A DNA stretch of 64,000 bases from an uncultured Acidobacteriota bacterium (GTDB lineage Bacteria > Acidobacteriota > Thermoanaerobaculia > Gp7-AA8), in contig CAWGHO010000001.1 of the NCBI GenBank assembly GCA_963822445.1, forward strand, positions 1,504,001 to 1,568,000, given 5' to 3'. The notes below the pieces were generated by a model that did no database searches, was not told where the DNA came from, and saw only the letters and a list, made by a program, of their open reading frames with translations. Position 1 is the stretch's first letter. Each line of letters opens with the position of its first letter. The translations under genes and the position numbers were made by a program. Shown here in pieces: positions 1 through 41,900 of this stretch.

Positions 1-1
1 C

Positions 2-454
2 GTGACTGAGCCGAAGAGGGTCGAGGATGTGATCGGGCTGATCGAGGCGCTCGGCGAGCTGCACGATCGCCGGGAACGGGCCGCGAAACTGGCGAATGAG
101 TTGCGCGATGCGCTTCGGTCGATGCCGCGGCGCGCGTTCACGTTCGCCTGTCCGATCTGGAAAGACCCCTGGATGTGGTGCGGCGGCGACACGTATGTCT
201 CGCGGCTCGTCGAAAGCGCGGGTGGGCGGAACGTGCTCGCGGATCGCGAGCGCTATCCGCAGGTGGCGCTGGAAGAGGTGATCGCGTTGCGGCCGGATGT
301 CGTTTTTCTGCCGGATGAGCCGTACGTGTTCACGGAGGCGGATGCGAAAGCGTTTGAGGGCCCGCGGGTCATCGGCCCCTTCCCTGGCCATCTCTTCACC
401 TGGCACGGCTCGCGGACGATTCAGGGCCTGCGGTTTCTGAGAGAAGTGGTCTGA
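2..454 (+). CDS. Periplasmic helical-backbone metal/cobalamin-binding protein (BtuF-like), 5' part outside window
   Basis: Motifs IWKDPWM..GGDTYV, RYPQV, PDVVFLPDEPY.F and FTWHGSR are typical of helical-backbone metal receptors. Confidence 0.75.
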   Translation: MTEPKRVEDVIGLIEALGELHDRRERAAKLANELRDALRSMPRRAFTFACPIWKDPWMWCGGDTYVSRLVESAGGRNVLADRERYPQVALEEVIALRPDVVFLPDEPYVFTEADAKAFEGPRVIGPFPGHLFTWHGSRTIQGLRFLREVV

Positions 455-522
455 ATCGCCCCGGCAGTTAGGAGAAGCGCCAACAGAAAGGGTCACGCAA
501 GGAGGCGCCGGGGCGATTCAGA
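450..522. repeat. 16-bp perfect inverted repeat between convergent genes (REP-like or bidirectional terminator)
   Basis: TCTGAATCGCCCCGGC (450-465) and GCCGGGGCGATTCAGA (507-522) with a 41-nt spacer. Confidence 0.7.
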
Positions 523-555
523 ACGAAGACAGACTATGCGATAACAGCATAAATG

Positions 556-1191
556 TCAACGTTCCAGAAGCTCCTCGGCCCAGCCCCGGATCGTCTCCTC
601 CACCGCCTCGAGCTGTTTGGTGAAGAAATGGTCCGCGCCGGTCACGGTCACGCTCTCGGCGTTGCGGATCCCCTGGACGAGTTTCTCGAGCTTGGCCGCG
701 TCGCCATGCTCGTCCTGCGTGCCGTGGATGAAGAGCATCGGCCGCTCGCAGGACCGGAGGTAGCTGAAGTCGTATTTGTTGACCGGGGTGCCGAGGAGGA
801 ACATCGCATCGACGTCGGTGCGCTCGCAGGCCACGCGGGTCGCGACCCAGGCGCCGAATGAGAATCCGCCGACGATCAGTTTCTTGTCGGGATGCTTGAG
901 CCTGGCCCACTTGATGGCCGCGGTGACGTCGTCCTGCTCGCCGTCGCCGTTGTCGAACTTGCCGCCGCTCGTGCCGACGCCGCGGAAGTTGAAGCGCAGC
1001 GTGGCCACGTTCGCGTTCTCCAGTCCGCGCGCCGCGCGAAACACGACCTTGTTGTGCAGCGTGCCGCCGCCCGTCGGCAGCGGATGGCAGATCACGGCGA
1101 CGGCCGCGGGATCCTGGAGCTCGCGATAAAGCGCTTCGAGACGGCCGGCCGGGCCGTAGAGATCGACATGACGCAGAGGTTTCGGATTCAC
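556..1191 (-). CDS. Alpha/beta hydrolase
   Basis: HPLP..GG.LHNKVV, RFNFRGVG.S, nucleophile GFSFG, HGTQDE and GADHFF. Confidence 0.9.
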   Translation of the reverse strand: MNPKPLRHVDLYGPAGRLEALYRELQDPAAVAVICHPLPTGGGTLHNKVVFRAARGLENANVATLRFNFRGVGTSGGKFDNGDGEQDDVTAAIKWARLKHPDKKLIVGGFSFGAWVATRVACERTDVDAMFLLGTPVNKYDFSYLRSCERPMLFIHGTQDEHGDAAKLEKLVQGIRNAESVTVTGADHFFTKQLEAVEETIRGWAEELLER

Positions 1192-1496
1192 GACAGCTTC
1201 ACCATCACTCGATCACCTTCCACTCGAACTTCATGCGTCGCGACGGAGATCTCCGGGTTTCCCGGACAGGCACCGGTCGCCAGGTCGAAGCCCCACAGGT
1301 GCCAGGGGCAGGTGATCTCGTCGCCGATCAGGTCTCCTTCAGCAAGCGGGCCACCACGATGGGGGCAGGTGTTGTCGGTCGCGTAAAAGCCTGAGCTCGT
1401 GTGGGAGATGGCGATGGTCCGGCCATCGACGACGCACGCTTTGATCCGGCCCACCGGCAGCTCGCTCACTGCCATGACTTCGATGAACTCGGGCAT
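1188..1496 (-). CDS. Rieske [2Fe-2S] ferredoxin
   Basis: CPHRGGPL...CPWH ligands; 102 aa. Confidence 0.92.
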   Translation of the reverse strand: MPEFIEVMAVSELPVGRIKACVVDGRTIAISHTSSGFYATDNTCPHRGGPLAEGDLIGDEITCPWHLWGFDLATGACPGNPEISVATHEVRVEGDRVMVKLS

Positions 1497-1499
1497 GCG

Positions 1500-1982
1500 T
1501 CAGCTGATCTTGCGCTGCTCGAGATCGTGTCTCGCCGCCGTGGTGTTCTGGTCTTTGTAGTGGTACTGCACGATCCCGTAATCGAGCGAGATGTTCTCGA
1601 CCGGCACGTCGCCGGGGCCGCCGGAGACGGAGTAGTTCGAAATGATGACGTGCTCCATCACCACCTCCAGATATTGGACCGGCCGGTTGCCGGAAGTGCC
1701 GTCCGAACGGAAGCAGGTCAGCGTCGCTTTACCGAACTGCTTTCCGCTCCAGCACGCCTTGAGCAGCTCGTTCGTGGTCCGGTCGAGGTACTTGGTGAAG
1801 CTGAGGTTCGCGTGGGATGCCTGCTCGACCGTCCCGCCGGCCGCGGAGCCGCGCGTCGGGCTGGTGGGCTGCGCGAATCCGTGGCTCCACGAGAGGACCT
1901 CGATCTCGCCCTGATGACCGGCAGCAGTGCTCGCCCCCGAGACCTCGGGATTCTCGAACCTGAGGTACATGTTCGTCGACAT
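1500..1982 (-). CDS. hcp: Hcp1-family type VI secretion tube protein (orphan)
   Basis: True start is MSTNMYL at 1982; GH.GEIEVLSWSHG, LSFTKYLD..T..L..AC.SG, YLEV.MEHVIISNYSVSG and PVENISLDY. Confidence 0.88.
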   Translation of the reverse strand: MSTNMYLRFENPEVSGASTAAGHQGEIEVLSWSHGFAQPTSPTRGSAAGGTVEQASHANLSFTKYLDRTTNELLKACWSGKQFGKATLTCFRSDGTSGNRPVQYLEVVMEHVIISNYSVSGGPGDVPVENISLDYGIVQYHYKDQNTTAARHDLEQRKIS

Positions 1983-1990
1983 GCGCCGGA

Positions 1991-3103
1991 TTAGATACGC
2001 ACCGGCCGCGGAATGCCACTCCTGCCAACCGCCGCGGTGCCATCCCAAACGCCGGGAATCGCAGTCGCGCATTCGGGGCACTTGCCGTCGACGAGCCTGT
2101 ACGACGTGACGCGGAAGCCAATCCGTCCGATGACCAGCGCATTGCACGACGGGCAGTGCGTTCCCTCCTTGTCGCCGAATCCGCCCGGAATGTTGCCCGG
2201 GTAGATGTAACGCAGGCCGGCGCGCTTGCCGATGTCGTACGCGCGCAGCAGATGCGACGCCGTCGTCGCGGGATTGGTCATCTTGTAATCCTCGTGGTAC
2301 GCGGTGATGTGCCAGGGGATGTCCGGATCGACGCCGGCCAGGAACTCGGCGATCTTCGTCAACTCTTCATCGGAGTCGTTGAATCCGGGGATGACCAGCG
2401 TGACGATCTCCACCCAGATCCCGCGCTGCTTGAGGCCGATGATCGTGTCGAGGACGGGCTGCAGGACGCCGCCGAGGTCGCGGTAGTGGCGATCGTCGAA
2501 TCCTTTGAGGTCGACCTTGTACATGGTGATGAAGGGCGCGATGTAGTCGAGAACTTCCGGCGTGCCGTTGCCGTTCGAGACGTACGAGCAGATCAGCCCT
2601 TCCTTTTTCGCCTCGCGGAAAACTTCCACTGCCCATTCCGAGGTGATGAGCGGCTCGTTGTAGGTCGAGGTGATGACCGTCGCGCCATGCTTTTTGGCGA
2701 TGCGCACCAGTTCCGCGGGCTCGACATCCTGCGGCGGCGCGATCGCGGCCGGATCGCGCAACGCCTGCGAGGTCACCCAGTTCTGGCAGTAGCCGCAGTG
2801 GTAATCGCAGCCGAGCATGCCGAACGACAACGCCAGCGCGCCGGGGTAAGCGTGAAAGAACGGCTTTTTCTCGATGGGATCGACCTGCAGCGCCGCGACG
2901 TAGCCGCGCGGCACGAGCAGCGTTCCGCCCTCGTTGTAGCGGACCTTGCAGATGCCTTTCAGACCGTCGGGGATTTTGCAGCGGTGTCCGCACGCGAAAC
3001 AGCGGACGGCGTTCTTCTCCAGCTTTTCGTAGAGCTCGCCTTCCACCGTCCGTTTCGAAAGGATCTCGCCCAGCGTCACCTGAGCCTGAGAGGTCGTGGC
3101 CAT
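1991..3103 (-). CDS. amrS: AmmeMemoRadiSam system radical SAM enzyme
   Basis: N-terminal CxxCxxxC...G.CKVR, DPIEKKPFFH, CDYHCGYCQN SAM motif, TYNEP, KVDLKGF and C-terminal CPSC/CPEC. Confidence 0.9.
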   Translation of the reverse strand: MATTSQAQVTLGEILSKRTVEGELYEKLEKNAVRCFACGHRCKIPDGLKGICKVRYNEGGTLLVPRGYVAALQVDPIEKKPFFHAYPGALALSFGMLGCDYHCGYCQNWVTSQALRDPAAIAPPQDVEPAELVRIAKKHGATVITSTYNEPLITSEWAVEVFREAKKEGLICSYVSNGNGTPEVLDYIAPFITMYKVDLKGFDDRHYRDLGGVLQPVLDTIIGLKQRGIWVEIVTLVIPGFNDSDEELTKIAEFLAGVDPDIPWHITAYHEDYKMTNPATTASHLLRAYDIGKRAGLRYIYPGNIPGGFGDKEGTHCPSCNALVIGRIGFRVTSYRLVDGKCPECATAIPGVWDGTAAVGRSGIPRPVRI

Positions 3104-3109
3104 GGCTGC

Positions 3110-4081
3110 TTAAAACAGCCGCAGGAACCGCGCCATTCGCGCCCGCCGCCAGGAAATCCACCAGCAACCGAGCGCGAGAACGAAGCCGGCCAGGCCATCG
3201 ACGAGGTAGTGCCAGCCGGTGATCATCGACCCGAGAAAAATGGTCGCCGCGAAAATGCCGAAGAGGACTTCGCCCGACGTCCAGAGCCGCCGCATCCACA
3301 AAAACACATACGTTTGAAAGGCGACGTGCAGGCTCGGAAACGCGGCGATCCCGAGCATCAGATGAATCGGGCCATGCTGCTCGCCGCGCGCGGCGCGGAT
3401 CACGTCCTGGTAGTTGCGCATCAGCACGGCCTGCAGGTACTGCGTGCGGGCGAGCACGTGGTCATACGCCAGCCAGACGTCGGGAAACCGATACGCGGGA
3501 CCGAGTGACGGAAAGGCCATGTACAACCAGACCCCCGCGATCCACAGCACGGCGTTGCCGTTCGCGAACGCAACGCGCACGCGGCGGCCGGGATCGGAGA
3601 AGAAGTAGCCCGAAGCGACGATCGTGCTGGCGTAGAAGACGTACGAATACGACCAGTCGATCGTCTTCAGAAAGGCCTCGTTGCCGAGGACGTCGAGAAA
3701 GAAAACGGTTGGCGCGAGGCCGAAGAAAACGAGCTGGTCGAGATCCCACAGTTGCTGATCGAAGAGCACGGGATGGACGACGGGCATGGCCAGCTTGATC
3801 CAGCCGTACGCGAAGAACGTGAGGCCGCCGGCGAAATTGAGGCGCAGCGTCTCCAGCAGCCACGGAAATCTCCGGAAACGCCGCAGATACTGTTTGCGGC
3901 CGGTCGCGAAGGCGACGATGACCCGGACGATGATGCCGATCACCGTGTAGATGAGCAGAGTCAGCGTGAGGGTGAGCGTCCACAACCAGGACGGCCGGAT
4001 TCCGGGGGCGTCACGGGTCAGGATGGCGATCGCGAGGATGTTCGCGATCGCCAGAATCTCCACAAAGTACAAACGCCTCAC
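3110..4081 (-). CDS. PAP2-family membrane phosphatase / IPC-synthase-like protein
   Basis: Multiple TM helices; PSLGP, AAFPSLHVA and GWHYLVDGLAG. Confidence 0.8.
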   Translation of the reverse strand: MRRLYFVEILAIANILAIAILTRDAPGIRPSWLWTLTLTLTLLIYTVIGIIVRVIVAFATGRKQYLRRFRRFPWLLETLRLNFAGGLTFFAYGWIKLAMPVVHPVLFDQQLWDLDQLVFFGLAPTVFFLDVLGNEAFLKTIDWSYSYVFYASTIVASGYFFSDPGRRVRVAFANGNAVLWIAGVWLYMAFPSLGPAYRFPDVWLAYDHVLARTQYLQAVLMRNYQDVIRAARGEQHGPIHLMLGIAAFPSLHVAFQTYVFLWMRRLWTSGEVLFGIFAATIFLGSMITGWHYLVDGLAGFVLALGCWWISWRRARMARFLRLF

Positions 4082-4088
4082 GCGGCGA

Positions 4089-4098
4089 AGATTACACT
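4089..4098. promoter_or_regulatory. Overlapping bidirectional -10 elements (AGATTACACT)
   Basis: + TACACT lies 7 nt before ATG 4106; - TAATCT lies 7 nt before GTG 4081. Confidence 0.55.
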
Positions 4099-4105
4099 CC
4101 GCCGC

Positions 4106-4882
4106 ATGTTCATCGAGACAACCATTCGGGATGGCGTGGCCACGATCACGCTGAATCGTCCCGAGAAACTGAACGCTTTCACCGGGACCATGCGCGAGGA
4201 TCTGCTGGAAGCCCTGCGCGCATGCGAGCGCGACGAAGCGGTACGCGTCGTGGTCCTCACCGGTGCAGGCCGCGCGTTCTGCGCGGGGGGCGACGTCGAG
4301 TACATGTCCGGCCTGCAGAAGAGCGGGGACGTGACCGCGTTCCGGAAGCTGCTCGACGCGGGTCGCGACGTCATTCTGCAGATCGCCACGATGCCCAAGC
4401 CCGTCATAGCCTCGATCAACGGCGTCGCCGCGGGAGCCGGCTGCAATCTCGCCCTGGCCTGCGATTACCGCATCGCTTCAGAGACGGCGAAGCTCAGCGA
4501 GAGCTTCGTGAAAATCGGCCTGCATCCCGACTGGGGCGGGACCTGGCTCCTTCCCCGACTGATCGGTCGCAGCCGCGCCGCGGAGATGCTGATGACCGGG
4601 CGGATGGTCGAGGCCGCGGAAGCGCTGGCCATGGGCATGATCGATCGTGTGGCGATGAATCTCACCGCGGAAACGGGAAGGCTCGCGGCGACGATCGCCG
4701 CGGCGCCGCCGATCGCGATCGCCGGCATCAAGCGCGCACTCGACGCCGCGGATCGCAACGACCTGCGCGCCCAGATCGAGCTCGAGAGCGAGCATCAACT
4801 GCGCTGCTTTCAATCGAGCGACGCCGCGGAAGGGATGGCCGCGTTCTTCCAGAAGCGCGCGGCCACCTTCAGCGGGCGCTAG
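4106..4882 (+). CDS. Enoyl-CoA hydratase/isomerase family protein
   Basis: TLNRPEKLNA, GRAFCAGGD, NGVAAGAG, ACDYRIA and GLHPDWGG; start trimmed to ATG 4106. Confidence 0.92.
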   Translation: MFIETTIRDGVATITLNRPEKLNAFTGTMREDLLEALRACERDEAVRVVVLTGAGRAFCAGGDVEYMSGLQKSGDVTAFRKLLDAGRDVILQIATMPKPVIASINGVAAGAGCNLALACDYRIASETAKLSESFVKIGLHPDWGGTWLLPRLIGRSRAAEMLMTGRMVEAAEALAMGMIDRVAMNLTAETGRLAATIAAAPPIAIAGIKRALDAADRNDLRAQIELESEHQLRCFQSSDAAEGMAAFFQKRAATFSGR

Positions 4883-5367
4883 TTCAACAGGAAGTACGGC
4901 GAAGTCCGTCCGGCGCTCGGCCGCATGGGCGTGCCGTCGACCGGACATTTGAATTCGCCGTCGTGATCGGTGTGCGGCACGCGCAGCATGGTCTGGTCTT
5001 TCGGACAGATGTAGTACGTGGCCTTCCGTCGAAGATCGGGGGAGGGCACCGGCAACGAGCCGTCGAGAGTCACTCCGTCGACGAGGATGCGATGCGGGCT
5101 GAGCGCCAGGCCCTGGGCGACGTCCTTCCACGTCAACTCCAGCACGCCATTCACCGGCTCGAGCTTGTACTCGTTCCTGACTCCCAGACGCTCCACGGTG
5201 ACGTGACGGATCTCGCCCTCGCGCCGGATGGTCACCTTCACGGACTCGTCGACGGTGAATACGTGCGCGATGCCCGGCGTGAGCTTGGACGTGTCGAAGC
5301 CGTACATACTCGCCGCGGCCTGAACGGTCGCCGCCGCAAGAAAGAGCACAAAAGCAAAAGCCTTCAT
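4879..5367 (-). CDS. Exported protein with C-terminal CPxD...CPxD heavy-metal-binding-like motif
   Basis: GGAGG RBS; signal peptide MKAFAFVLFLAAATVQA; YYICPKD...FKCPVDGTPM. Confidence 0.7.
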   Translation of the reverse strand: MKAFAFVLFLAAATVQAAASMYGFDTSKLTPGIAHVFTVDESVKVTIRREGEIRHVTVERLGVRNEYKLEPVNGVLELTWKDVAQGLALSPHRILVDGVTLDGSLPVPSPDLRRKATYYICPKDQTMLRVPHTDHDGEFKCPVDGTPMRPSAGRTSPYFLLN

Positions 5368-5390
5368 ACATCCTCCGTTTTGGAAGAATT

Positions 5391-7010
5391 CTACGCGCGG
5401 CGGACGATGACCAGGGTCTCGTCGTCCTTCTGCGGCGCTTCGCCGACGAAGTTCACGACCGCCGCGGCAATCTGATCGCGGATGAGCGCGGCACCGCCGT
5501 CGATGTGCTGCTCGAGCAGCGCCTCGAGCCGCTCGTTCCCGAACTCGTCCCCAGCCACATCCTCCGCCTCGGTGATCCCGTCGCTGTACAGCACGACGCA
5601 CGTGCCGGCCGGGAACGGGCGGGTCTGGGTCACGTAGTGAGTGCCGGGGAGGATTCCGATCGGCAGTCCGTGCGACTTGATCTGGTCGATCTTTCCGTTG
5701 CCGATCAGGTAGCAGGGATTGTGGCCGGCGTTCACGTACTGGATGGTCTCGTTCTCCGGATCGATGGCCACCATGATCATGGTGATGAACTTGTTCTCGG
5801 CCGACCAGTTGTGAATGTGGCGATTGAGCTCCGTGGCGATCTCGCCCAGGCCGCGGCCTTCGGCGAACAGCAGCTGAATGACGGCGTGCAGCGCGGACAC
5901 GAGCAGCGCCGCCGGCATCGACTTCCCGGCCACGTCGGCCACGAGCGTGGTGACCACGCCCTCGCGAACGAAGAACGCGTGATAGTCGCCGCCGACCTGC
6001 CGCGCCGGATTCGACAGCGCGGCGATCTCGATTCCTTCGACCTGGGGAATGGCCTTCGGAAGAATGTCGCGCTGGATCGTCGCGGCCAGCTCGAGGTCGC
6101 GCTCCATGGCCTGCTTCTCGAGGGCCTCGCGGTGCAGGCGCGCATTCTCCAGCGCGATCGCGACCTGATTGGCGAACAGTGAAAGCAGACGAAGCTCGTT
6201 CGCTTCGAACGCGCCGATGCCTCCCTCCCGCGTTTCCCGATCGGCCGCGGCCAGCACGCCGATCACGTTGTCGTTGCTGCCCTTGATCGGGACGCTGACG
6301 AAGGTCGTGCAATCGGGAAAGATGCAGTCGCTGCCGCCTTCGTACGTCAGCGGCTTGCCTTCGCGGATCAACTGCTCGGTCAGATCGGCATCGAGAAAGC
6401 TCTCCCTCACGTCGCCGAAGGACCGGTACAACTTGAAGCCGCCGGCTTCCTTCAGATAGAGCGAAGCCCGGCGCGCGTTGGTGAGCGAGATCATCCGGAA
6501 GAGGATCTCGTCGGCCAGCTCGTCGACGTTGAGGGTCGAGGCGATGGAGAGGCCGATGTCGTACAGCGACTCGAGCTCCCACAGCCGGTACTTGAGTTGA
6601 AAGTCCCCTTCCCGCGTTTCCTGCAGCAACCGCTGGTTGGTGATCAGCGTCGAGAGAAATGTTCCGGCCGCGCGCGCGAAGGCAATGTCTTCATCAGACG
6701 CGGCATCGCAATACAGCGCCAGCAACCCGACCGCTTCGCGTTGCGATTGCAGCGGCACCACGACCGACGGCACGGGCGACACGGAATCCTCGGCACGTCC
6801 ATCGAGGATCTCCGGCGCCACACACTGCTGTGATTTCGCGGCGAGTCTGAGCGGCGTGCCGCGCGACTCGCGCAGGTACAACGCACCGTCGCCGAAGGGA
6901 GTGTGCCGCGCGAACGCGTCGAGGATGGTCGGCCCCTGCGCCGTGATCGAGCCTCTCTCCAGTTGCTGAAGCTCGTGGACGAAATCTGCAAACCGTCGAA
7001 CCGGCGGCAT
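5391..7010 (-). CDS. GAF-domain PP2C/SpoIIE phosphatase (RsbU-like)
   Basis: GAF-like regions followed by VGGDY, VADVAGK, NAGHNP, YSDGITEA and KDDETL. Confidence 0.92.
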   Translation of the reverse strand: MPPVRRFADFVHELQQLERGSITAQGPTILDAFARHTPFGDGALYLRESRGTPLRLAAKSQQCVAPEILDGRAEDSVSPVPSVVVPLQSQREAVGLLALYCDAASDEDIAFARAAGTFLSTLITNQRLLQETREGDFQLKYRLWELESLYDIGLSIASTLNVDELADEILFRMISLTNARRASLYLKEAGGFKLYRSFGDVRESFLDADLTEQLIREGKPLTYEGGSDCIFPDCTTFVSVPIKGSNDNVIGVLAAADRETREGGIGAFEANELRLLSLFANQVAIALENARLHREALEKQAMERDLELAATIQRDILPKAIPQVEGIEIAALSNPARQVGGDYHAFFVREGVVTTLVADVAGKSMPAALLVSALHAVIQLLFAEGRGLGEIATELNRHIHNWSAENKFITMIMVAIDPENETIQYVNAGHNPCYLIGNGKIDQIKSHGLPIGILPGTHYVTQTRPFPAGTCVVLYSDGITEAEDVAGDEFGNERLEALLEQHIDGGAALIRDQIAAAVVNFVGEAPQKDDETLVIVRRA

Positions 7011-7037
7011 CGGAAAGGCAGGATATACCGGGGAGAA

Positions 7038-7391
7038 CTACAGGGCGAGTTGCTGCACGGCGGCTTCTTCCGTATCGAAGATGGCCGCGTAATTCGCCAG
7101 ACCCATGATGTGAAAGGTCTTGTGGATGACCGGGGTCAGGCAGCAGAAGGAGATCTTCCCTCCCCGCTCGATCATCTTCTCGATGATCTCGATGAGGATG
7201 GAGATGCCGATGGAGTTGACGATCTTGGTGTCGCCGAGGTTGAGGAGGAGGTTGTTGACACCCTGGTCCATCAGCTCGTAGGCGATGCGGGCGATCTCCT
7301 CGCCGCCGACGTTGTTGATGTAGCCCTTCGTGTACAGGATTGCGCCTGTGTCCCCCCGGCGCTCGACCCTGAGTCTCAATTCGTCCGTCAT
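7038..7391 (-). CDS. STAS anti-sigma-factor antagonist (RsbV-like)
   Basis: LLLNL..TKIVNSIGISIL with the phosphoacceptor Ser; FHIMGL; the start at 7391 overlaps the stop of the upstream gene. Confidence 0.9.
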   Translation of the reverse strand: MTDELRLRVERRGDTGAILYTKGYINNVGGEEIARIAYELMDQGVNNLLLNLGDTKIVNSIGISILIEIIEKMIERGGKISFCCLTPVIHKTFHIMGLANYAAIFDTEEAAVQQLAL

Positions 7392-7828
7392 TGCGTCTTC
7401 CCGTATTTCACCATGTGAATGGTCGTGCCGCCGTCGGGACTGGTCTCGATACCGACCTCGTCCATGTGTGCTTCGATGATTTGCAGACCCCAACCTCGCT
7501 TGTGAGCAACGCCGAGTTTCTGGCGGCGGGAACGGGCCTCGGTCACGTCGAACCCTTTGCCGCGATCGCTGATCCAGATGTCGATGCGCGGGTTGCCCTC
7601 GCCCAGAGAGGTGCCGACGATTCTTACATAGATACGTTTGTCTTCGCTACCGGAGTGCTCGCGCGCGTTGATGCATGCCTCGATCATCGCGTGGGCCATC
7701 TCGTCGATGGCTTCCGTGGGCATGCCCAGCTCCCTGGCGAGGTTGCCTGCCGCTCGCGCGGCGGCGATCTCGATATCCGGGACCATCGGGAGCGTCAGCT
7801 CCATCTGCCGCTCTGCGGTAGCAGTCAT
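7388..7828 (-). CDS. Anti-sigma factor / Ser kinase (RsbW-like HATPase)
   Basis: N box EACINAREH, G1 SDRGKGFD, G2 RGWGLQII. Confidence 0.9.
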   Translation of the reverse strand: MTATAERQMELTLPMVPDIEIAAARAAGNLARELGMPTEAIDEMAHAMIEACINAREHSGSEDKRIYVRIVGTSLGEGNPRIDIWISDRGKGFDVTEARSRRQKLGVAHKRGWGLQIIEAHMDEVGIETSPDGGTTIHMVKYGKTQ

Positions 7829-7856
7829 TAGCAGGATTTCCTCGGCGACTGGACGA

Positions 7857-8027
7857 TTAGAAAGCGAGGAAGAGCGCGGCGGCGGTCTTGATCCACCGAG
7901 GGATCCCGCCGAGTTGATCGAGCGCGAGCAGAGCGACGGTGTTGACGGCCAACACGCCGGGGAGGATGTAGCTGGCCGAAAGCGCTGATTCGAGCCGGGT
8001 GGTGCGTGTCTGCATGATGTTGTTCAT
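7857..8027 (-). CDS. Small (56 aa) membrane peptide, not in ORF track
   Basis: Hand translation [56 protein letters not shown]; RBS GAGGGGG precedes the ATG; directly downstream of a -24/-12 promoter. Confidence 0.65.
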
Positions 8028-8060
8028 GGTGAGCCCCCTCTGTTGTCGGGACCACCCTTT

Positions 8061-8076
8061 CGCAACGCGGCTGCCA
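8061..8076 (-). promoter_or_regulatory. Sigma54 (-24/-12) promoter
   Basis: The minus strand reads TGGCAGCCGCGTTGCG (GG-N10-GC), close to the TGGCAC-N5-TTGC consensus. Confidence 0.7.
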
Positions 8077-8165
8077 CGCGTGCCGAACCAGCTCGATGCC
8101 TCCTAACCTTCTGACGCGTGCGCAGTTTACACGAGTTGACCGTTTTGTGAAGGCGGACTGGCTTG

Positions 8166-8281
8166 TGTTGCATTTTGGGACAGAGTCGCAAAGTCTCAAA
8201 GTCGCAGAGTCGCAAAGTGCTTTGACTCAAGTACTTACTAGTGTATGTCCCAATTGTCAGCAATTGGCGCATTTTGGGACA
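8166..8281. promoter_or_regulatory. Candidate enhancer (UAS) sites for the adjacent bEBP
   Basis: TGTCCCAAAATGCAACA (8166-8182, -), TGTCCCAATTGTCAGCA (8246-8262, +) and TGTCCCAAAATGCGCCA (8265-8281, -), about 90-200 bp upstream of the sigma54 promoter. Confidence 0.55.
8182..8218. repeat. 8-bp tandem repeat A(G/A)AGTC(G/T)C, about 4.5 copies
   Basis: AGAGTCGC AAAGTCTC AAAGTCGC AGAGTCGC AAAGT. Confidence 0.75.
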
Positions 8282-9772
8282 GCTCGTCACGCTTGCGATA
8301 GAGCGTCTTGCGATCCACGCCCAGGATTTTGGCCGCCTTCGACATGATTGCCCTTGGTGAAGGCCAGCACTCGCATGATGTAGCGCGCTTCCAGCTCGTC
8401 GAGCGTCGGAAGGTCGCCGGAGAGCTCGCGCTCGTCCGCGCCGGCCGCCGATTCGGGAAGGAGGAGGTCGCCAGGATCGATGACCGGGTCGGTCGTCAGA
8501 GCCAGGGCGCCTTCGATCTGGTTCTCCAGCTCGCGGACGTTGCCGGGGAAGGCGTAGCGCATCAGCTTCTGCAGCGCCTCCTGCGTGATCCGCACGTCGC
8601 TGCAGCCCCTCGCGCTTGCCGTACTTGTCGAGGAAGTAGCGGACCAGCTTGGGGATGTCTTCCTTCCGCTCGCGAAGCGGTGGCAGCACGATCTCGACGA
8701 CTTTGAGACGGTAGTAGAGGTCCTGGCGGAACTCGCCGCGCTCGTTCATCTCCTCGAGATTGCGGTGCGTCGCGGAGAGGATGCGCACGTCGACGGGGAT
8801 CCGGCGCCGGCCGCCGAGCTTCTCGATCTCCCGCTCCTGCAGAACGCGCAGGAGCTTGGCCTGCAGGGTGAGAGGGATGTCGCCGATCTCGTCGAGGAAG
8901 ATCGTCCCGCCCTTGGCCAGCTCGAACTTGCCGGGCCGGGCTTCGACGCCCGTGGCGACGCCGCGCTCGATACCGAACAGCTCGGACTCGAGCAGCGTCT
9001 CCGGAAGTGCCGCGCAGTTGATGGCCACGAACGGACCGTCTTTCCGCGGCGAGTTGCCGTGAATGAGGCGCGCCACCATTTCCTTGCCCGTCCCCGACTC
9101 GCCACGAATGAGCACGCTGGCCTGGGAGTCGGCGACGCGGGCAACGAGGTCGATCACCCGCTGCATCTTCGGCGAGTCGCCGACCATCAGCCGGTCGGAG
9201 TACTCGCGCAGCATCCGCTGCTTCAGAGCGCGGTTCTCGTCCTCGAGCGTCTCGCGCACGAGATCGAGCTTGTGGAAGCGGCGGGTGTTGTCGATCGCCG
9301 CACCGCCGATGGAGGCGATGGATTCGAGAAAGCGAAGATCGTCGTCGACGAAGCTGCCGCCTTTCGTCGCGCCGCGCACTTCCTTGCCGCCGACGCCGAT
9401 CACGCCCGACGATGGCATCGCCGGCGATCATCGGCGCGATCAGGAGATCGCCACCCGGCCCGCCGAGGAACTTGGAGACGGTGACCATCATCGGCTCGCG
9501 CGAGGCGATGACCTGCTTGATCGGCGGCTCGGATGAGAAACGACTCCGCCGACCGCCGTCTCCAGACCGAACGTGAACAAGGTCTGCACGTGAAGCTTGT
9601 CGTCGACGGAGAAGACGAACCCGCTCATGGCATCGAGCACTGCCACCGCCCGGTGCATCAGCTCCTCGAGCAGATCATCCTCGGGGCGAAGCGTGTTCAG
9701 CGCGCGGCCGACGTCGTAGAGCGCCTCGAGCTGGAGGAGCTTGCTTCGTAATTCGAACTGGCTTTGTGCCAT
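8238..9772 (-). CDS. GAF-AAA+-HTH sigma54-type enhancer-binding protein (several frameshifts, probably sequencing errors)
   Basis: The pieces join as [11 protein letters not shown]... [51 protein letters not shown] and [24 protein letters not shown]. Confidence 0.85.
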
Positions 9773-9781
9773 GGTCTTCGA

Positions 9782-9854
9782 AGTCGCAGAGTCGTCGAAA
9801 GTCTGCAGAGTCTCAGACGAGGGCGTCTTTGCAGACTTTGACGACTCTGCGACT
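9782..9854. repeat. Hairpin built from the same AGTCGCAG-type unit, upstream of the bEBP start
   Basis: AGTCGCAGAGTCGTCGAAAGTCTGCAGAG pairs with CTTTGCAGACTTTGACGACTCTGCGACT. Confidence 0.7.
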
Positions 9855-9860
9855 ATGCGG

Positions 9861-10205
9861 CTATTTCCCGAGCGCCTTCCTGACACTCCCCGAGCAGAAA
9901 ATCCCCGTTCCAGGCCTGGTAAAACGCCTGATCGAGCGCGTAGATTCTGATCAGGAGGGCTGAGGCTTCGTCGTAACGGCCTGTTTTCATCAGCGTGCGG
10001 GCCAGGAAGTAGAGCGAGCGGATCGTTTGCGCGTCCTGCTCCTCGCGCTCGGCGATCCGGCGGAAGCCGGTCTCGGCCTCGCCGAAGTTGCGGCGCTGGT
10101 ACGCGCAGAGAGCCGCTCGTAGTCGCCTTCGAGGTTGCAGGTCGTCGGCGGTGGGCCGCGAGCGCAGTTGTCGGCGAGGAGTGCGAGAATGAGCGCCAGT
10201 CGCAT
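9861..10205 (-). CDS. Small exported TPR protein (frameshifted)
   Basis: Signal MRLALILALLA; an alternate frame gives AYQRRNFGEAETGFRRI...SLYFLARTLMKTGRYDEASALL (TPR helices). Confidence 0.6.
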
Positions 10206-10217
10206 GCGACGTTCATT

Positions 10218-10970
10218 ATGCGCTTAGGTATCGTCGGGGGCGGCAGGGCCGCGTGGGCGTTCGGCTCGGCGTGGAAGCGCATCGGCTGGCCGCTGTCGGG
10301 CCTCTGGCTGCGCGATGAGTCCCGCAGCCGCATCACCGAGCTGCTCGAAACGCCGCGCCTCGACATCGATGATCTGGCTCGCGACTCCGAGCTGCTCCTG
10401 GTTGCGGTCAGCGATCGCGCCATCCCCGAGGTTGCGGCTTCGATTCCGGAGAGCGAGGCGCTGATCTTCCACGCCAGCGGGGCCATGCTCAGCGTCCGCG
10501 GCGGATTTGCCCTTCATCCACTGAAATCACTGCCGCCGGTCGGCGAGCCTTCCGATCTCGAGGACACGCTGCTCGTCTTCGAAGGCGAGCATCGCCGCAC
10601 GGCGAAGCTTATTGCCGCCGCGGTCGGCGCCCGATTCGCCGAGGTTTCCGCGGAACAGAAAGCGCTGTACCACGCCGCGGCGGTGTTCGGATCGAACTAC
10701 GTCGCGGCGATGCTCGACATCAGCGAGCGTCTGCTGCGCCGCGCCGGCATCGAGGACGCGCGGGAGACGCTGGTCGCCCTCGCGCATTCGGCGATCGCGA
10801 ACTGGCGCCATCACACCGACGAGAAGCGCTTCACCGGTCCGGCGGCGCGAGGCGATGCCGAAGTCATGCAGCGCCACATCGCCGCTTTGCGCGATGATCC
10901 GCGGCTGCGAGAGGTCTACGAACTGCTCGCCGCCGAGATCGCCGGTTCAAAGCTTGCTAACCCAAAGTAA
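10218..10970 (+). CDS. Rossmann-like + DUF2520 domain oxidoreductase (PanG-like)
   Basis: GIVGGGRAA, LVAVSD, FHASGA, LHPL, LYHAAAVFGSNY and TGPAARGD. Confidence 0.85.
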   Translation: MRLGIVGGGRAAWAFGSAWKRIGWPLSGLWLRDESRSRITELLETPRLDIDDLARDSELLLVAVSDRAIPEVAASIPESEALIFHASGAMLSVRGGFALHPLKSLPPVGEPSDLEDTLLVFEGEHRRTAKLIAAAVGARFAEVSAEQKALYHAAAVFGSNYVAAMLDISERLLRRAGIEDARETLVALAHSAIANWRHHTDEKRFTGPAARGDAEVMQRHIAALRDDPRLREVYELLAAEIAGSKLANPK

Positions 10971-11016
10971 AGGCCGGTGGTGCTAGCATCACAAGCCCGT
11001 TCGAGAGCCTAAGTCG

Positions 11017-12390
11017 ATGGTCTTCTTCAATTACGCAACGATGCAGATGGCCGCGAAGATCGTTTACTACGGTCCGGGCCTGTGCGGGAAGACGACCAAT
11101 CTCCACCACATCTACACGAAGACCTCGCCGCAGAGCCGCGGGGAGATGGTCAGCCTGGAGACCGAAACCGACCGCACTCTCTTCTTCGATCTTCTCCCAA
11201 TCGACGTCGGCGTGATCGGCGGCTTCAAGACCCGCCTGCAGCTCTACACCGTCCCCGGCCAGGTCTTCTACAACACCACCCGCAAGCTGGTGCTCAAGGG
11301 CGTCGACGGGATCGTGTTCGTGGCCGATTCCCAGGCGGCGATGCTCGACGCCAACGTCGACAGCCTCAAAAATCTGCGCGAGAACCTGGCCGAGATCGGC
11401 CTCGATCTCGACGACATCCCGGTCGTGCTGCAGTTCAACAAGCGCGATCTGCCGAACGTCGCCGACCCCCAGACCATGCTCAATGCTCTCGATCCCGACC
11501 GCCGCTTCGAGCATGTCGAGGCGGTGGCGTACACCGGCATCGGAGTCTTCGAGACCCTCAAGCTGATCTCGAAACTCACCCTCCGCCAGCTTCGCCGGCG
11601 GATGACCGGCGACGACGCGGTGAAGTCAGCCTCGCCGCAGCAACGCGGCTTGGGGGCGCACTTCCGCGTGCGCGATGAGCCCGAGGTTTCCTCGCGGACG
11701 ATCGCGGCGGACACGCCTGTACCCGCGGTCAGGGCGAAGACGAGCACGAACCCGATTCCGGCGTACGGCGGCACCGCCACCGCTTCCACGGTCACGACGC
11801 CCGAGGCGCAGCCGATCGAGAGCCTCCCGCCGGCGGACATCATCGAGGAAGCCACGGAGGTCGTCCCCGACCTCGATCGGCACATCATTGCCGACGCGCC
11901 GGTACCCGAAGCACCGCCCGAAATCGAAGAACCGGAGCCGGAGATCGCGCCGGAACCGATCGAAGAGCCGCCAACAATCGAGGACGTTCCGCCGCCCCCG
12001 CCCGCCGAGCCGGAAATCGACTTCGGCCAGACCGCGCAGCCCCAGAAAGCCCAGCCCGAGGTAAAGACAGTCAAAGTCCGCTCCTCCGTCGACGTCATGG
12101 CCGAGTTGGAAGCTCTGCGCAAACGGGCTACGAACGTCACGCCCAAGGCAGCCCGGCGCGACATCATGGCTGACCTCGAAAGCCTCCGCCCCAAACGCGA
12201 CATCCAGCGCACCCTCCACCTGTCGGTCCCCTCCGACGTGCTCCCTCGCACGAAGAGCGTTCGGGTTACACTTTCCTTCGAAGATGGTGACCAGGGGGTC
12301 ATTCAGAGCCAGGACCAGACGGTGGACCTGGCCGACACCTCCGACGTCCAGAGTCTTTCGGTCAACCTGAAAATCGACTTAGCCCAATAG
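11017..12390 (+). CDS. MglA-like small GTPase with long Pro/Glu-rich linker and C-terminal domain
   Basis: KIVYYGPGLCGKTTNL, ETDRTLFFD, LYTVPGQV and NKRDL, then about 260 extra aa. Confidence 0.88.
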   Translation: MVFFNYATMQMAAKIVYYGPGLCGKTTNLHHIYTKTSPQSRGEMVSLETETDRTLFFDLLPIDVGVIGGFKTRLQLYTVPGQVFYNTTRKLVLKGVDGIVFVADSQAAMLDANVDSLKNLRENLAEIGLDLDDIPVVLQFNKRDLPNVADPQTMLNALDPDRRFEHVEAVAYTGIGVFETLKLISKLTLRQLRRRMTGDDAVKSASPQQRGLGAHFRVRDEPEVSSRTIAADTPVPAVRAKTSTNPIPAYGGTATASTVTTPEAQPIESLPPADIIEEATEVVPDLDRHIIADAPVPEAPPEIEEPEPEIAPEPIEEPPTIEDVPPPPPAEPEIDFGQTAQPQKAQPEVKTVKVRSSVDVMAELEALRKRATNVTPKAARRDIMADLESLRPKRDIQRTLHLSVPSDVLPRTKSVRVTLSFEDGDQGVIQSQDQTVDLADTSDVQSLSVNLKIDLAQ

Positions 12391-12421
12391 CTGTCGCGGC
12401 TGGGAAGCGAGGGGGTGCGCG

Positions 12422-13798
12422 ATGCGCAACACATTTCTGTTGATGACGACGGCGTTGTTCGCGGTTGCCTGTGCGAGCTCGTCCGTTGCGCCACAACCCG
12501 TCCCCGCGGCATCGGCCGTCGCCGCCGCGGAGGATGTCCATGCCGCCGAGTTCCGCAAGGAGCTCGAAGAGGCCTACACCCACATCCTGGCCCGCGTCGA
12601 CACGAAGGCCGTTCCCGTCGATGCCCCGGTCGTCGACATCGAGGCCGCCGCGTCGATCCCGATCCCCCAGCACCGGACCATTGATTCCGCAGTCCGTCTG
12701 TTCAGCGGCGACATGAAGGACAGCATCCAGACCTCGCTGATCCGTTCCGGCCGCTACAAAGAGCTGATCGACAAGGCCCTCGCCGAGCACCAGCTGCCGA
12801 AAGGGCTGGCCTATCTGCCGGTCATCGAGAGCGCGTATCTCCCCAATCTCACCTCGCGCGTCGGCGCGCACGGCATCTGGCAGTTCATGCCCGACACCGC
12901 CCGCGAGTACGGCCTGCGCGTCGACTGGTGGGTCGATGAGCGCGCGGATCCGGAGCGCTCCACCCGGGCCGCGGCGCAGTACCTCAAGGACCTCCACCGG
13001 ATGTTCGACGACTGGGCGCTGGCTCTCGCGGCGTACAACTGCGGTCCCGGCCGCGTGCGCCGCAAGCTCGCCGAGACCGGCGCGTCGACGTTCTGGGAGC
13101 TGCTCGAACAGAGCGCACTGCCGAAGGAAACCCGCGGTTACGTCCCGACGTTTTTCGCGACGCTGCTCATCGCCAGCGATCCGGCCACGTACGGCTTCGA
13201 GCTCGGCGAGGCGGTCGAGTTCGATCACAAGCGCGTCGAAGTTCGCGGCCCCGTCTCCCTGGCCTACATCGCCGAGACCACCGGTGTCGACGAGGACGTA
13301 CTCCGCGAGCTGAACCCCGCGTTCCGCCGCGCCGTCGTCCCGCCTGGCCGGGCTACGGTTCGCGTACCCGCGAAAGCAGCGGAAACGCTCGCCGCCGTCG
13401 CCGACTCGATCCGCGACGAAGACGCGCGGATGAAGGTCTGCACGTTCAAGCTGCGCAGCGGCGACAACCTCAAGAGCCTTGCCCGCGCCATCGGCACCAA
13501 GCCGGAAACAATCCTGGCCATGAACAACCTCGACGCGAATGACACCGTTCGCGCCGGCGAGACGATCTACCTCCCCGTCCGCGCCCGCGAGCTCGGCGCC
13601 CTCCTCGCCCACAGCAACGACAGCGATTACTTCTACGCCGTCCGCAAAGGCGACACGCTCTACTCGATCGCCAAGAAAAACGGGCTGACTGTCAGCGAGC
13701 TCCGCGAACTGAATGAACTGGGTGCCGGCGTGAAATTGCGGACCGGGATGAGGTTGCGGGTTGCCGCGCCGCGCACTGCTGCTGCCGGCGGCATGTAG
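12422..13798 (+). CDS. MltD-like lytic transglycosylase lipoprotein with LysM domains
   Basis: Lipobox AVAC; LPVIES, GIWQFM, AAYNCG and ETRGYV; C-terminal LysM repeats. Confidence 0.92.
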   Translation: MRNTFLLMTTALFAVACASSSVAPQPVPAASAVAAAEDVHAAEFRKELEEAYTHILARVDTKAVPVDAPVVDIEAAASIPIPQHRTIDSAVRLFSGDMKDSIQTSLIRSGRYKELIDKALAEHQLPKGLAYLPVIESAYLPNLTSRVGAHGIWQFMPDTAREYGLRVDWWVDERADPERSTRAAAQYLKDLHRMFDDWALALAAYNCGPGRVRRKLAETGASTFWELLEQSALPKETRGYVPTFFATLLIASDPATYGFELGEAVEFDHKRVEVRGPVSLAYIAETTGVDEDVLRELNPAFRRAVVPPGRATVRVPAKAAETLAAVADSIRDEDARMKVCTFKLRSGDNLKSLARAIGTKPETILAMNNLDANDTVRAGETIYLPVRARELGALLAHSNDSDYFYAVRKGDTLYSIAKKNGLTVSELRELNELGAGVKLRTGMRLRVAAPRTAAAGGM

Positions 13799-13886
13799 TC
13801 GTTACGGGGTTCCGAGGTTACGGGGTTACGAGGGAGTTCCCCACCCGTAACCCCGCAACCCCGTAACCTCGTAACCCCGCAACTAC
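13795..13886. repeat. Inverted array of 8-bp units (GTTACGGG x4 / CCCGTAAC x5)
   Basis: 13801-13832 forward and 13844-13883 reverse, bounded by GTAG...CTAC. Confidence 0.8.
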
Positions 13887-13907
13887 CTGTGCTAGTTTCC
13901 CCCTCCC

Positions 13908-17749: not shown

Positions 17750-19009
17750 ATGCTTCGTCCTCTCTTCTTTTCTCTGCTCTTCCTCGCCCTGGTCGGTGAC
17801 GCGCGGATCTTTCTGTTCGTGCTGAACCGCCTCGTCTTCGGCGCCCATCGCGAAGAGAAAGCGAAGCTGCACTGGCTGATGTACGCCGTTCCGCCGCTGC
17901 TGCTCTTTCTCACGCTGCTTTTCCTGCCGCTGCACGAATGGATTGCCGATCTGTCCGACAACCGTCTGGTCGATCGCATCACCCCCGAGCCGATCGAGCG
18001 GGTGTGGCAGGCGTTCTGGACCTACGTCGGCCCGGCCTGGCTGTTCATCGCCGCGGGCGTCGGCCTTTATTGGCTGATCGATCGCGTTCGCGTGCTGGTG
18101 TTCCCGGCTTCTGCCGTCGCCGGAACGAAGACATTCGTGCCGACGGTGATCCGCGCGCGGATCCGCGCGGAAGAACGCGAGCCGCAGGTATCGACGCTGA
18201 AGCGCATCGCCCGCGCGGTCGGCGCTCACAACGACGTTTACGATTTCGAGATCACGCAACACGAAGTTGCGATTGCGAGTCTGCCCGCATCCTTCGATGG
18301 CTATCGCATCGCGTTCCTCACCGACACTCACGTCGCATCCTTCATGCGGCGCGATTTCTACCGCGCCGTCGTCGCCCAGGCGAGCGCCTTCGATCCCGAT
18401 CTCGTCCTCCTCGGCGGCGACTTCGTGACGTGGGAGCGGCACATCCCGCTGATGGCCGAGGTGCTGCTGACCGATCTTCAGGCCCGCGATGGCATTTACG
18501 CGGTCCTCGGCAATCACGATTACTGGGCGAATCCGAAGGCGGTCATGGAAGCGATGACGGCGCGCGGCGTTCAGTTCATCGTCAATCGCTCCGTCGCCAT
18601 CCGCCGCGGCGACGAGATGATCTCGCTCCTCGGGATCGACGAGGTCTATCGCGGCCATCCGGACCTCGACGCCGCCTTCGCCGGCACCGATCCGAACCTC
18701 CCCTGCCTCGGCCTCAGCCACCATCCCGACATCATCGACAGGCTCGACGGATGGAAGCTCGATCTGCTCGTGTGCGGCCACACCCACGGCGGACAGATCC
18801 GCTTTCCGTTCTTCGGCTCGGTGATCGTCCCGTCGAAACACGAGAGCCGTTACGCGAGCGGATTTCAGCGGGTGGGGGACGTGTTGCTGTACGTCAGCCG
18901 CGGAATCGGGGCCATCCCGCCGGTGCGCATTCTTTGCAGACCGGAACTGGCCACCTTCACCCTGCGGCGGTCTCTCAATGACGACAAAACTCTCGGAGGT
19001 CTGGCCTGA
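17750..19009 (+). CDS. Membrane-anchored metallophosphoesterase (YkuE-like)
   Basis: N-terminal TMs; TDTH, GGD, GNHD, SHHPD, GHTHGGQ and VSRGIG. Confidence 0.88.
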   Translation: MLRPLFFSLLFLALVGDARIFLFVLNRLVFGAHREEKAKLHWLMYAVPPLLLFLTLLFLPLHEWIADLSDNRLVDRITPEPIERVWQAFWTYVGPAWLFIAAGVGLYWLIDRVRVLVFPASAVAGTKTFVPTVIRARIRAEEREPQVSTLKRIARAVGAHNDVYDFEITQHEVAIASLPASFDGYRIAFLTDTHVASFMRRDFYRAVVAQASAFDPDLVLLGGDFVTWERHIPLMAEVLLTDLQARDGIYAVLGNHDYWANPKAVMEAMTARGVQFIVNRSVAIRRGDEMISLLGIDEVYRGHPDLDAAFAGTDPNLPCLGLSHHPDIIDRLDGWKLDLLVCGHTHGGQIRFPFFGSVIVPSKHESRYASGFQRVGDVLLYVSRGIGAIPPVRILCRPELATFTLRRSLNDDKTLGGLA

Positions 19010-41399: not shown

Positions 41400-41900
41400 G
41401 GCTGCTGGCGCTGACGGAAGAGACTCGTCAGCGGCTGATCGTTGGCCTCTTCCTCGGCATCGAGCACGATCAACTGCTGAATCATGTCGAGCGTTCCCTG
41501 CAGCTTGTTGCGCGCGGCGCGGCGCTCCAGCTTGAGATCGCCGATGGACTTCTCCAGATCGCCGACGCGCTGCAAGGCCTGTCCGACGAGCCGCTCCGAG
41601 AGCAGCTCCGCGTCCTTCACGATCAGCTCCGCTTCCTTGCGCGCGTTGCCGATCAGATCCTCGGCCACCTTCTGCGCGGAAAGCAGCGTGTCCTTGAGAA
41701 TGCGCTCGCGGTTGGAGTGGTCTTCGAGATCCTCGCGGAGCATGGCGTTCTCGCGCGAGGTGCGATCGACATCGCGCAGCAGCCGCTCGATCTCTTCGGC
41801 CACGAGGTGCAGGTATGCACGCACCTCATCCGGGTTGATACCCCTTGATTGCCCGCGAGAACGTCTGCTTCTGAATCTCGAGCGGTGTGAGGTTCTGCAT
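41396..41900 (-). CDS. divIVA: DivIVA domain protein (frameshift near 41836)
   Basis: MQNLTPLEIQKQTFSRAIKGY joins NPDEVRAYL; coiled coil with ARKEAELIVKDAE. Confidence 0.85.

Follow-up and report, generated by a model that had tools for sequence, protein, structure and literature searches.

What does a partner switch control when no sigma factor is encoded with it and its genes lie behind a predicted sigma-54 promoter? The question is raised by a minus-strand block (10205 to 4879) in a window of 64 kb, the whole stretch of DNA analysed (G000:C1:1504001-1568000), from an uncultured acidobacterium with a genome of 6.0 Mb in three contigs and a marker completeness of 94.7%. In order of transcription, the block contains genes for an exported tetratricopeptide repeat (TPR) protein, a bacterial enhancer-binding protein (bEBP), a hydrophobic peptide of 56 residues, an RsbW-like kinase (W), a STAS protein (V), a GAF-GAF-PP2C phosphatase (U) and an exported protein with CPxD motifs. 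Within the operon, genes are separated by 23-28 nt or overlap. An earlier note had seen a self-contained signalling system in this block, and every element that it listed was recovered in place by site searches and by Pfam, scanned over 16 stretches of the window between 1991 and 12390 (one of them, 4090-4882, read out of frame). Comparison with relatives suggests, with a probability of about 0.6, that the locus represents a signalling cassette of a soil acidobacterium that is conserved, dedicated and dependent on sigma-54.

The conserved core of the cassette

Linkage of the cassette genes was followed in 18 loci fetched from relatives, from genus to class level, in records titled Acidobacteriota and mostly Thermoanaerobaculia. 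Two unpublished genomes (G002 and G030) are left out of this set; one or both are included in the tallies of the same-genus and same-class PP2C search, of a draw of 301 genomes across the phylum and of a sigma-factor search in 21 genomes. In all 18 loci, a bEBP gene is followed by a gap of 311-633 nt and then by W, V and U, except that in L028 an inserted isocitrate-lyase gene lies in the gap, which measures 2.9 kb. A sigma-54-type promoter is found at the same place in 18/18 relatives (9-11 of 12 specified positions), with a small open reading frame (ORF) after it in each. W, V and U also lie downstream of the bEBP gene at 27 of 31 further orthologous loci (among the 80 listed loci of a motif scan described below), the other four ending at contig edges; two of the 31 coincide with the contigs of L015 and L022. 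Thus, the linkage of bEBP, small ORF and rsbW/V/U genes is kept, and activator, sigma-54 promoter, peptide and switch, which the earlier note had taken for a unit, are conserved as one in the 18 fetched relatives. On this comparison, the core consists of bEBP, promoter, peptide, W, V and U. PP2C orthologues occur in 24/24 same-genus genomes searched (76-85% identity); identity falls to 49-56% within the order and to about 36-45% for other families of the same class. The STAS protein has a single-copy orthologue in 26/26 same-class genomes drawn (25/25 without G030) and, in the phylum draw, also in 12 genomes of six other families.

The kinase gene (7388-7828, minus strand) encodes 146 residues of the RsbW/SpoIIAB type (HATPase_c_2, E 1.8e-16). 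Its N-box, G1 and G2 motifs are conserved in 42 sequences, with E50, N54, D88, G90, G92, R111, G112 and G114 invariant and H58 of the N-box nearly so, and its profile matches the RsbW of PDB 6M36 (E 2.4e-19) and also 1TH8_A. The STAS gene (7038-7391, minus strand), whose start overlaps the rsbW stop by 4 nt, encodes an RsbV-like, single-domain protein of 117 residues (STAS, E 1.4e-10). An NSIG motif is invariant across 19 STAS sequences aligned, and S60 aligns with the first Ser of the SpoIIAA motif DSSG (PDB 1TH8_B), which we take to be the phospho-acceptor. Among NCBIfam models, the kinase is nearest to RsbW/SpoIIAB and the STAS protein to anti-sigma antagonists, all matches being far below equivalog cut-offs. 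The intact phosphatase gene (5391-7010, minus strand) encodes an RsbU-like protein of 539 residues with GAF and SpoIIE-family matches, the latter covering profile positions 3-191 of 192 (E 9.1e-44). The STAS protein is the most conserved of the module, with class-level identities of 45-67% versus 33-49% for the kinase and 36-44% for the phosphatase, and with 45-81% across the phylum sample. With catalytic and phospho-acceptor motifs conserved, the trio most likely forms a working switch.

The first gene behind the promoter (7857-8027, minus strand) is preceded by a Shine-Dalgarno sequence GAGGGGG (8034-8040, minus strand). Its 56-residue product has a basic N-terminus, one transmembrane-like helix, a conserved Pro and a short amphipathic helix ending in LFLAF. 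The small ORFs of the 18 relatives share this plan: a hydrophobic helix, a Pro, a short helix and an L-x-L-x-F/L tail. A median ratio of non-synonymous to synonymous substitution (dN/dS) of 0.31 (28 pairs from eight genus-level sequences), a GC content at third codon positions of 0.84 in frame and 418 homologous clusters in a large protein collection together identify the ORF, by sequence criteria, as a real coding gene. All named clusters are titled ‘hypothetical protein’, two of the titles naming Thermoanaerobaculia, and the Protein Atlas gave only matches to unnamed clusters (best score 0.90, low recognition). Neither the peptide nor the CPxD protein belongs to a Pfam or NCBIfam family, even at E 10. 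In 33 of 42 peptide sequences, a 19-residue Kyte-Doolittle window of at least 1.6 is combined with a basic N-flank, a heuristic hydropathy sign of a membrane helix with its N-terminus inside. The probable role of the peptide is to tether the module to the membrane or to modulate it there.

Two genes that the earlier note had placed in the system lie at its margins. The exported TPR gene (9853-10205, minus strand; Pfam TPR_19 and others on 9856-10110, in a three-frame reading) is kept in loci of the genus and the order but not beyond. In relatives, it is an intact ORF for a small protein of ~114 residues, with a signal-peptide-like N-terminus and four conserved Cys. At class level, the bEBP gene is preceded by an unrelated 481-residue TPR gene at two loci, by a PDZ-(GAF)-SpoIIE gene at three and by uvrA at three others; L025, L028 and L030 are the records with PDZ-(GAF)-SpoIIE and/or the 481-residue TPR gene at this place. 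Some class-level relatives therefore have a second phosphatase at the same cassette. The TPR gene and a divergent DUF2520 gene have starts only 12 nt apart (10205-10218; 14 nt in L014), so that a promoter of the TPR-bEBP unit must sit within the neighbouring coding region. At the other end, the exported CPKD...CPVD protein (4879-5367, minus strand; 162 residues, no family match) is encoded 23 nt downstream of rsbU and has a signal-peptide-like N-terminus. Its only homologue is a weak match of 29% identity in L020, 1.7 kb further downstream (1/18 loci, none elsewhere in the genome), and the Protein Atlas gave no usable match. By its distribution, the CPxD protein is a lineage-specific passenger outside the conserved core, and its inclusion in the system does not hold.

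The promoter and its activator

The predicted sigma-54 promoter, TGGCAG-CCGCG-TTGCG (8061-8076, minus strand; GG at 8074-8075, GC at 8062-8063), is near-consensus and lies 35 nt ahead of the ATG of the peptide. The pattern TGGCAG-N5-TTGC occurs once in the window (8062-8076), with a mean of 0.05 in shuffled sequences, and the genome encodes rpoN (C3:1663596-1664072). Upstream, three 17-mers at 8166-8281 are imperfect copies of the dyad TGTCCCA-N3-TGGGACA and constitute putative activator sites on the minus strand. Sites 1 (TGTCCCAAAATGCGCCA, 8265-8281, 12/14 dyad positions) and 2 (TGCTGACAATTGGGACA, 8246-8262) fall within the final codons of the bEBP gene, and site 3 (TGTCCCAAAATGCAACA, 8166-8182) is found ~106 nt upstream of the -24 element. 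The shorter string TGTCCCAA occurs three times in the window, always inside 8175-8281 (shuffle mean 0.67; 3/100 shuffles reach three). The position of site 1 is kept in genus-level alignments, and the dyad at this first position is a perfect palindrome in L014. Such a layout is that of NtrC sites. Between site 3 and the promoter, a block TCGTGTAAACT(A/G)CGC (8124-8151, minus strand) is conserved across the genus. It coincides with the second of two weak sigma-70-like matches (8199-8172 and 8151-8124) and may be a site for a bending protein or a second promoter.

In a search of the whole genome (6 Mb), a dyad and a well-formed promoter co-occur solely at this locus. Seven other dyad-promoter pairs are read as chance because their dyads are single and weaker (10-11 of 14) and their promoter matches are weaker too. 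The bEBP therefore appears, as far as such sites can be predicted, to be dedicated to the peptide-W-V-U operon; if so, the output must come from the products of the operon itself.

The bEBP gene (8238-9772, minus strand) reads here in five pieces (9539-9772, 9405-9536, 8600-9403, 8347-8598 and 8241-8342). Pfam places Sigma54_activat on 8600-9403 (E 9.1e-69), AAA_lid_14 on 8347-8598 and HTH_8 at the C-terminus; intact orthologues combine GAF_3, Sigma54_activat (E 1.7e-68), AAA_lid_14 and HTH_8, in a single ORF of 491-565 residues in 18/18 relatives. The earlier note had assigned the domains correctly but had missed both the broken frames and an altered loop: within the sequence ELFGIExGVATGV, GVATGV replaces GAFTGA in the window protein and in 18/18 orthologues. 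In studies of PspF-type activators, the Phe of the GAFTGA loop is needed for contact with sigma-54. Among 19 EBP-like ORFs of the genome, GVATGV and PP2C/W/V neighbours are found solely in this bEBP; 13 of the other 18 have GAFTGA-like loops with Phe, and in five the pattern found none. The only GVATGV bEBP found in the literature is DVUA0100 of Desulfovibrio vulgaris, for which activity despite these substitutions is inferred, in the sections of PMC4641369 consulted, from regulon prediction.

A scan for F-G-x-E-x-G-V-A-T-G-V, with one genome per species, gave at least 120 stretches, and 80 loci were analysed. Taken as orthologous at a score of at least 560 with profiles built from orthologues, 31 of them have titles naming Acidobacteriota, Thermoanaerobaculia, Holophagae, Sulfomarinibacter or Multivoradales. 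The remaining 49, with scores of 311-458, belong to Terriglobia, Desulfobacterota, Myxococcota, Bacteroidota, Pseudomonadota and others; the orthologous W/V/U trio is found at 0/49 of these listed loci. Profiles for PP2C, STAS or HATPase_c_2 have matches at nine of the 49, seven of which are confirmed by Pfam: Cache-HAMP-SpoIIE with W and V (L044), STAS with Cache-SpoIIE (L046), large SpoIIE proteins (L068, L073 and L043), two 5TMR-LYT-SpoIIE proteins with V and W (L092), and W (L067). In an AAA+-region tree with an outgroup from one genome, a midpoint root and tips picked by the GVATGV motif, all 81 GVATGV sequences group together in a single clade (support 0.93), separate from the 18 other EBP-like ORFs. 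The 32 orthologous sequences are a subclade (support 0.94), and GVATGV bEBPs from Desulfovibrionales-type records share the larger clade with the window protein. No STAS-like N-terminal domain was found in nine GVATGV bEBPs of other phyla, two of which have GAF domains and the rest no family. In records from Bacteroidota, Pseudomonadota and Desulfobacterota (L071 besides the seven just named), GVATGV bEBPs adjoin membrane-sensor PP2Cs, STAS proteins and RsbW-like kinases, with overlapping bEBP and PP2C frames in Mailhella and Avidesulfovibrio.

Broken frames and possible outputs

The sequencing runs listed as sharing words with the sequence include none of RNA. The breaks in the two upstream genes were compared with contigs of four soil-metagenome runs, which come from relatives and not from the source (best share 0.11 of words; most pieces 90-95% alike). 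Against these, the window has one-base insertions at 8346, 8600/8601, 9404 and 10170 (all four), and two within 9533-9548; one run carries an extra base relative to the window at 10113 and 10153. The frame of the TPR gene changes near 10111. In total, ~8 one-base insertions or deletions (indels) fall in 1.9 kb (8346-10170) of the bEBP and TPR genes, ~3 of them in the latter. Read through these breaks, the conceptual bEBP has three private changes among 357 columns otherwise invariant across eight genus-level orthologues, which themselves have 3-19; judged by these columns, it shows no relaxed selection. Peptide, W, V and U, in the 2.6 kb downstream, are without frameshift. Elsewhere in the window, ileS (13896-16662, plus strand) is split by a frameshift near 15072 that cuts the catalytic domain at profile position 185; since it is the sole copy in the genome, and a same-genus relative has one ORF of 932 residues, residual indel errors in the assembly are indicated. 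A similar defect is a truncated rsbW match in G003 (four contigs, 86% completeness). The ~8 indels are most likely assembly errors, and we hold this with high confidence because of the few private changes, the intact downstream genes, the frameshifted ileS and an assembly in three contigs at 94.7% completeness. Programmed frameshifting of the bEBP was considered and rejected in view of five separate one-base insertions, none conserved in relatives. Two further places in the window were noted: at 18651-19887 (plus strand), a 444-residue ORF of a relative has a frame change near 19600 here, its C-terminal piece carrying a 4Fe-4S double-cluster domain and its N-terminal stretch a stop in the frame tried, and another frame shift is possible near 41840.

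Several points weigh against the reading of the locus as a dedicated, working cassette. In the sequence as it stands, neither the activator gene nor the TPR gene has an intact frame. The indels form a cluster, ~8 in 1.9 kb versus two or three in the other ~40 kb compared, which uniform sequencing error does not account for. The GVATGV loop is without the contact Phe, and activity in this clade is so far a prediction. Four genomes of the same class (G028, G029, G033 and G037; 2.0-3.6 Mb) have weak RsbU/PP2C matches only, and the cassette is therefore common in the class and not universal. Transcription, phosphorylation and protein contacts are all predicted from sequence, and the choice among the three models of output discussed below is one that we infer. 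The clustering could reflect a decaying locus, with TPR and bEBP genes as real pseudogenes of this strain and the downstream operon silent and being lost. In line with this, a dispersed repeat lies on either side of the bEBP gene, a feature peculiar to this genome: its 13-mer core, with 15 copies in the genome versus ~0.18 expected, often paired or tandem, is found at 8199-8211 (minus strand) and at 9781-9793, and relatives are without it at this place. Several observations speak against decay. The changes at invariant columns are the lowest among the nine sequences, with no amino-acid excess; there are no stop codons beyond those caused by the shifts; every indel is a single base; the frames from peptide to U are intact; and a defect of this kind is also present in ileS, an essential single-copy gene. 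Decay of the locus is accordingly held to be improbable.

No sigma-factor gene was found in the block by the window Pfam scan, as the earlier note had said, nor in the fetched flanks, where synteny was mapped in 18 loci and Pfam was run on 26 flank ORFs of eight loci (L021 and L024-L030; for genus-level flanks, the result rests on synteny with window genes scanned by Pfam). The flanks and block are likewise without polysaccharide, secretion or motility genes by Pfam. The cut-off of the SigB/F/G model (TIGR02980) is reached in 0/21 genomes (0/19 without G002 and G030), which weakens the possibility, raised at the outset, of a SigB-like factor encoded elsewhere. The genome has two sigma-70-family genes with region 3, rpoD and an RpoD/RpoS-like gene of 395 residues (G000:C3:1024573-1025145; L157:1093-2280) that falls below all equivalog cut-offs. 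This second factor is conserved in most relatives, 18/21 genomes giving two SigB/F/G-model matches (G002 and G030 included), and is a candidate target for the several RsbW-like kinases of the genome.

In the mechanism considered here, one ligand would derepress the bEBP, so that the operon is transcribed, and would also activate the phosphatase. That one signal is read twice is suggested by the second GAF domain of the phosphatase, which is paralogous to the GAF domain of the bEBP (25% identity over 177 residues, E 4e-13, shared N-terminal helix). The phosphatase would remove the phosphate from Ser60 of the STAS protein, which might then itself act on an unlinked target that is conserved, in the way proposed for SypA-type systems; alternatively, it might capture the kinase and free what the kinase held. 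Since no other component is as conserved as the STAS protein and a SigB-type sigma is missing, we tentatively favour the STAS protein itself as the output, at somewhat less than even odds.

A canonical anti-sigma switch, in which the kinase sequesters an unlinked sigma-70-family factor (the 395-residue RpoD/RpoS-like protein or one of the extracytoplasmic function type) and dephosphorylated STAS protein releases it, is a less probable output, though one to be taken seriously. In its favour, the nearest matches of the kinase are RsbW and SpoIIAB, both true anti-sigma factors, the second region-3 sigma is conserved, and chlamydial Rsb systems are described, in the parts of PMC11619594 consulted, as partner switches with a target sigma. 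Against it stand the absence of any genome above the SigB/F/G cut-off and of a sigma gene within the fetched flanks of the 18 loci. Furthermore, the sigB and sigF operons are autoregulated by their own sigma factors, and the present module would be driven by sigma-54. Release by the kinase of an unlinked sigma, such as the second RpoD/RpoS-like factor, is thus rather doubtful as the output. A third model closes the loop: the RsbW-like or STAS protein would bind the GVATGV bEBP or sigma-54 and gate enhancer-dependent transcription, without a sigma-70-family target, in a self-regulating operon. No further target of the bEBP is apparent in the genome; its GVATGV relatives form one clade, and at least seven of the 49 non-orthologous loci, in other phyla, place such a bEBP directly beside a sensor PP2C, a STAS protein or HATPase_c_2, the frames of bEBP and PP2C overlapping in Mailhella and Avidesulfovibrio. 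By analogy with PspF and PspA, an operon can encode an inhibitor of its own activator. Adjacency is, however, equally explained if the bEBPs simply regulate these genes, 40 of the 49 listed loci are without such a neighbour by profiles, the N-termini examined in other phyla have no STAS-like domain, and binding to bEBP or sigma-54 is putative. Feedback of this kind on bEBP or sigma-54 is therefore judged unlikely as the output, as is gating by the trio through either of them; equally unlikely is its corollary, that the small peptide, as the sole non-regulatory product, is the effector or membrane sensor. If the loop were closed, the GVATGV clade would represent activators co-evolved with partner-switch proteins across several phyla, and in Thermoanaerobaculia the peptide would serve the circuit as effector or membrane sensor.

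Genomic surroundings and known systems

With a GC content of 61-67%, many of the frames predicted in the window are spurious. A scan of 4500-10600 against Rfam gave no match up to E 1, no tRNA was found in window positions 1-16000, and a simple terminator scan gave four candidates versus 4.0 expected from shuffles, which is not above chance. Next to the cassette, and conserved with it down to order level, lies a gene for a small-GTPase-like protein (11017-12390, plus strand) with a weak Arf-family match and a Pro/Glu-rich C-terminal extension of ~260 residues; its N-terminus presumably resembles that of MglA.

The components of the cassette are of well-known kinds, unlike their arrangement. 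The RsbU-RsbV-RsbW/sigma-B and SpoIIE-SpoIIAA-SpoIIAB/sigma-F switches of Bacillus are built from the same three protein families, whose motifs are conserved in the cassette. Unlike these switches, the cassette has no SigB/F/G sigma in operon, genome or 20 relatives, is preceded by a sigma-54 promoter under an adjacent bEBP, has a phosphatase with GAF sensing and opens with the gene of a small, conserved membrane peptide. Functionally, its closest counterparts are sigma-less STAS systems, above all the syp locus. The syp system of Vibrio fischeri (SypG, SypE and SypA), BtrUVW, RbaVW and HmpUVW likewise combine a STAS protein, a kinase and a phosphatase with no cognate sigma, and syp, too, is controlled by a sigma-54 activator, SypG. 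These modules lie within polysaccharide, type III secretion, gene-transfer-agent or motility loci, whereas the cassette operon contains only the switch and the peptide, the CPxD protein following in this lineage only. SypE is one response-regulator protein with both activities, in contrast to the separate kinase and phosphatase of the cassette, and the GAF sensors and the small peptide have no equivalent in syp-type systems. For sigma-less STAS systems, the portions of PMC8256260 and PMC4517449 consulted describe the unphosphorylated STAS protein as the presumed output, acting on an unknown target.

Likenesses on the side of the activator are more partial. DVUA0100 is a one-component bEBP with the same three loop substitutions and adjoining predicted sigma-54 promoters; as far as the consulted sections of PMC4641369 go, it has an uncharacterised N-terminal region and predicted control of type III secretion operons, where the cassette pairs a GAF sensor with a partner-switch operon and, by Pfam, is not flanked by secretion genes. 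PspF, PspA and PspBC likewise represent a sigma-54 activator dedicated to one adjacent operon of regulators and small membrane proteins. PspF, however, is without a sensor domain, the Psp system does not use the kinase, STAS protein and phosphatase of the cassette, and no PspA/IM30 family protein is among the Pfam matches of the block. SiaABCD of Pseudomonas aeruginosa also has a PP2C, an RsbW-like kinase and a STAS-like protein without a sigma; the cassette PP2C matches the SiaA model weakly and in part (44.7 bits versus a cut-off of 700), and, unlike in SiaABCD, no diguanylate cyclase gene was found in operon or flanks by Pfam. A search of open-access papers and preprints found none linking partner switching with a bEBP or a sigma-54 promoter.

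Thus, the cassette departs from the RsbUVW family in having no cognate sigma of the SigB/SigF type and from bEBPs in having no GAFTGA loop, yet most likely works like both. The comparison supports the view that GVATGV bEBPs, without the usual Phe, still serve sigma-54 promoters, and it points to a recurring link of their clade with PP2C, STAS and kinase genes in several phyla. It also brings to light a peptide family of 418 clusters that had no name. According to the parts of PMC8256260 consulted, sigma-less partner switches are widespread and their targets mostly unknown. A compact cassette, single-copy in 26/26 same-class genomes drawn and with a sensor-activator that appears dedicated to it, would therefore offer a clean case for finding such a target.

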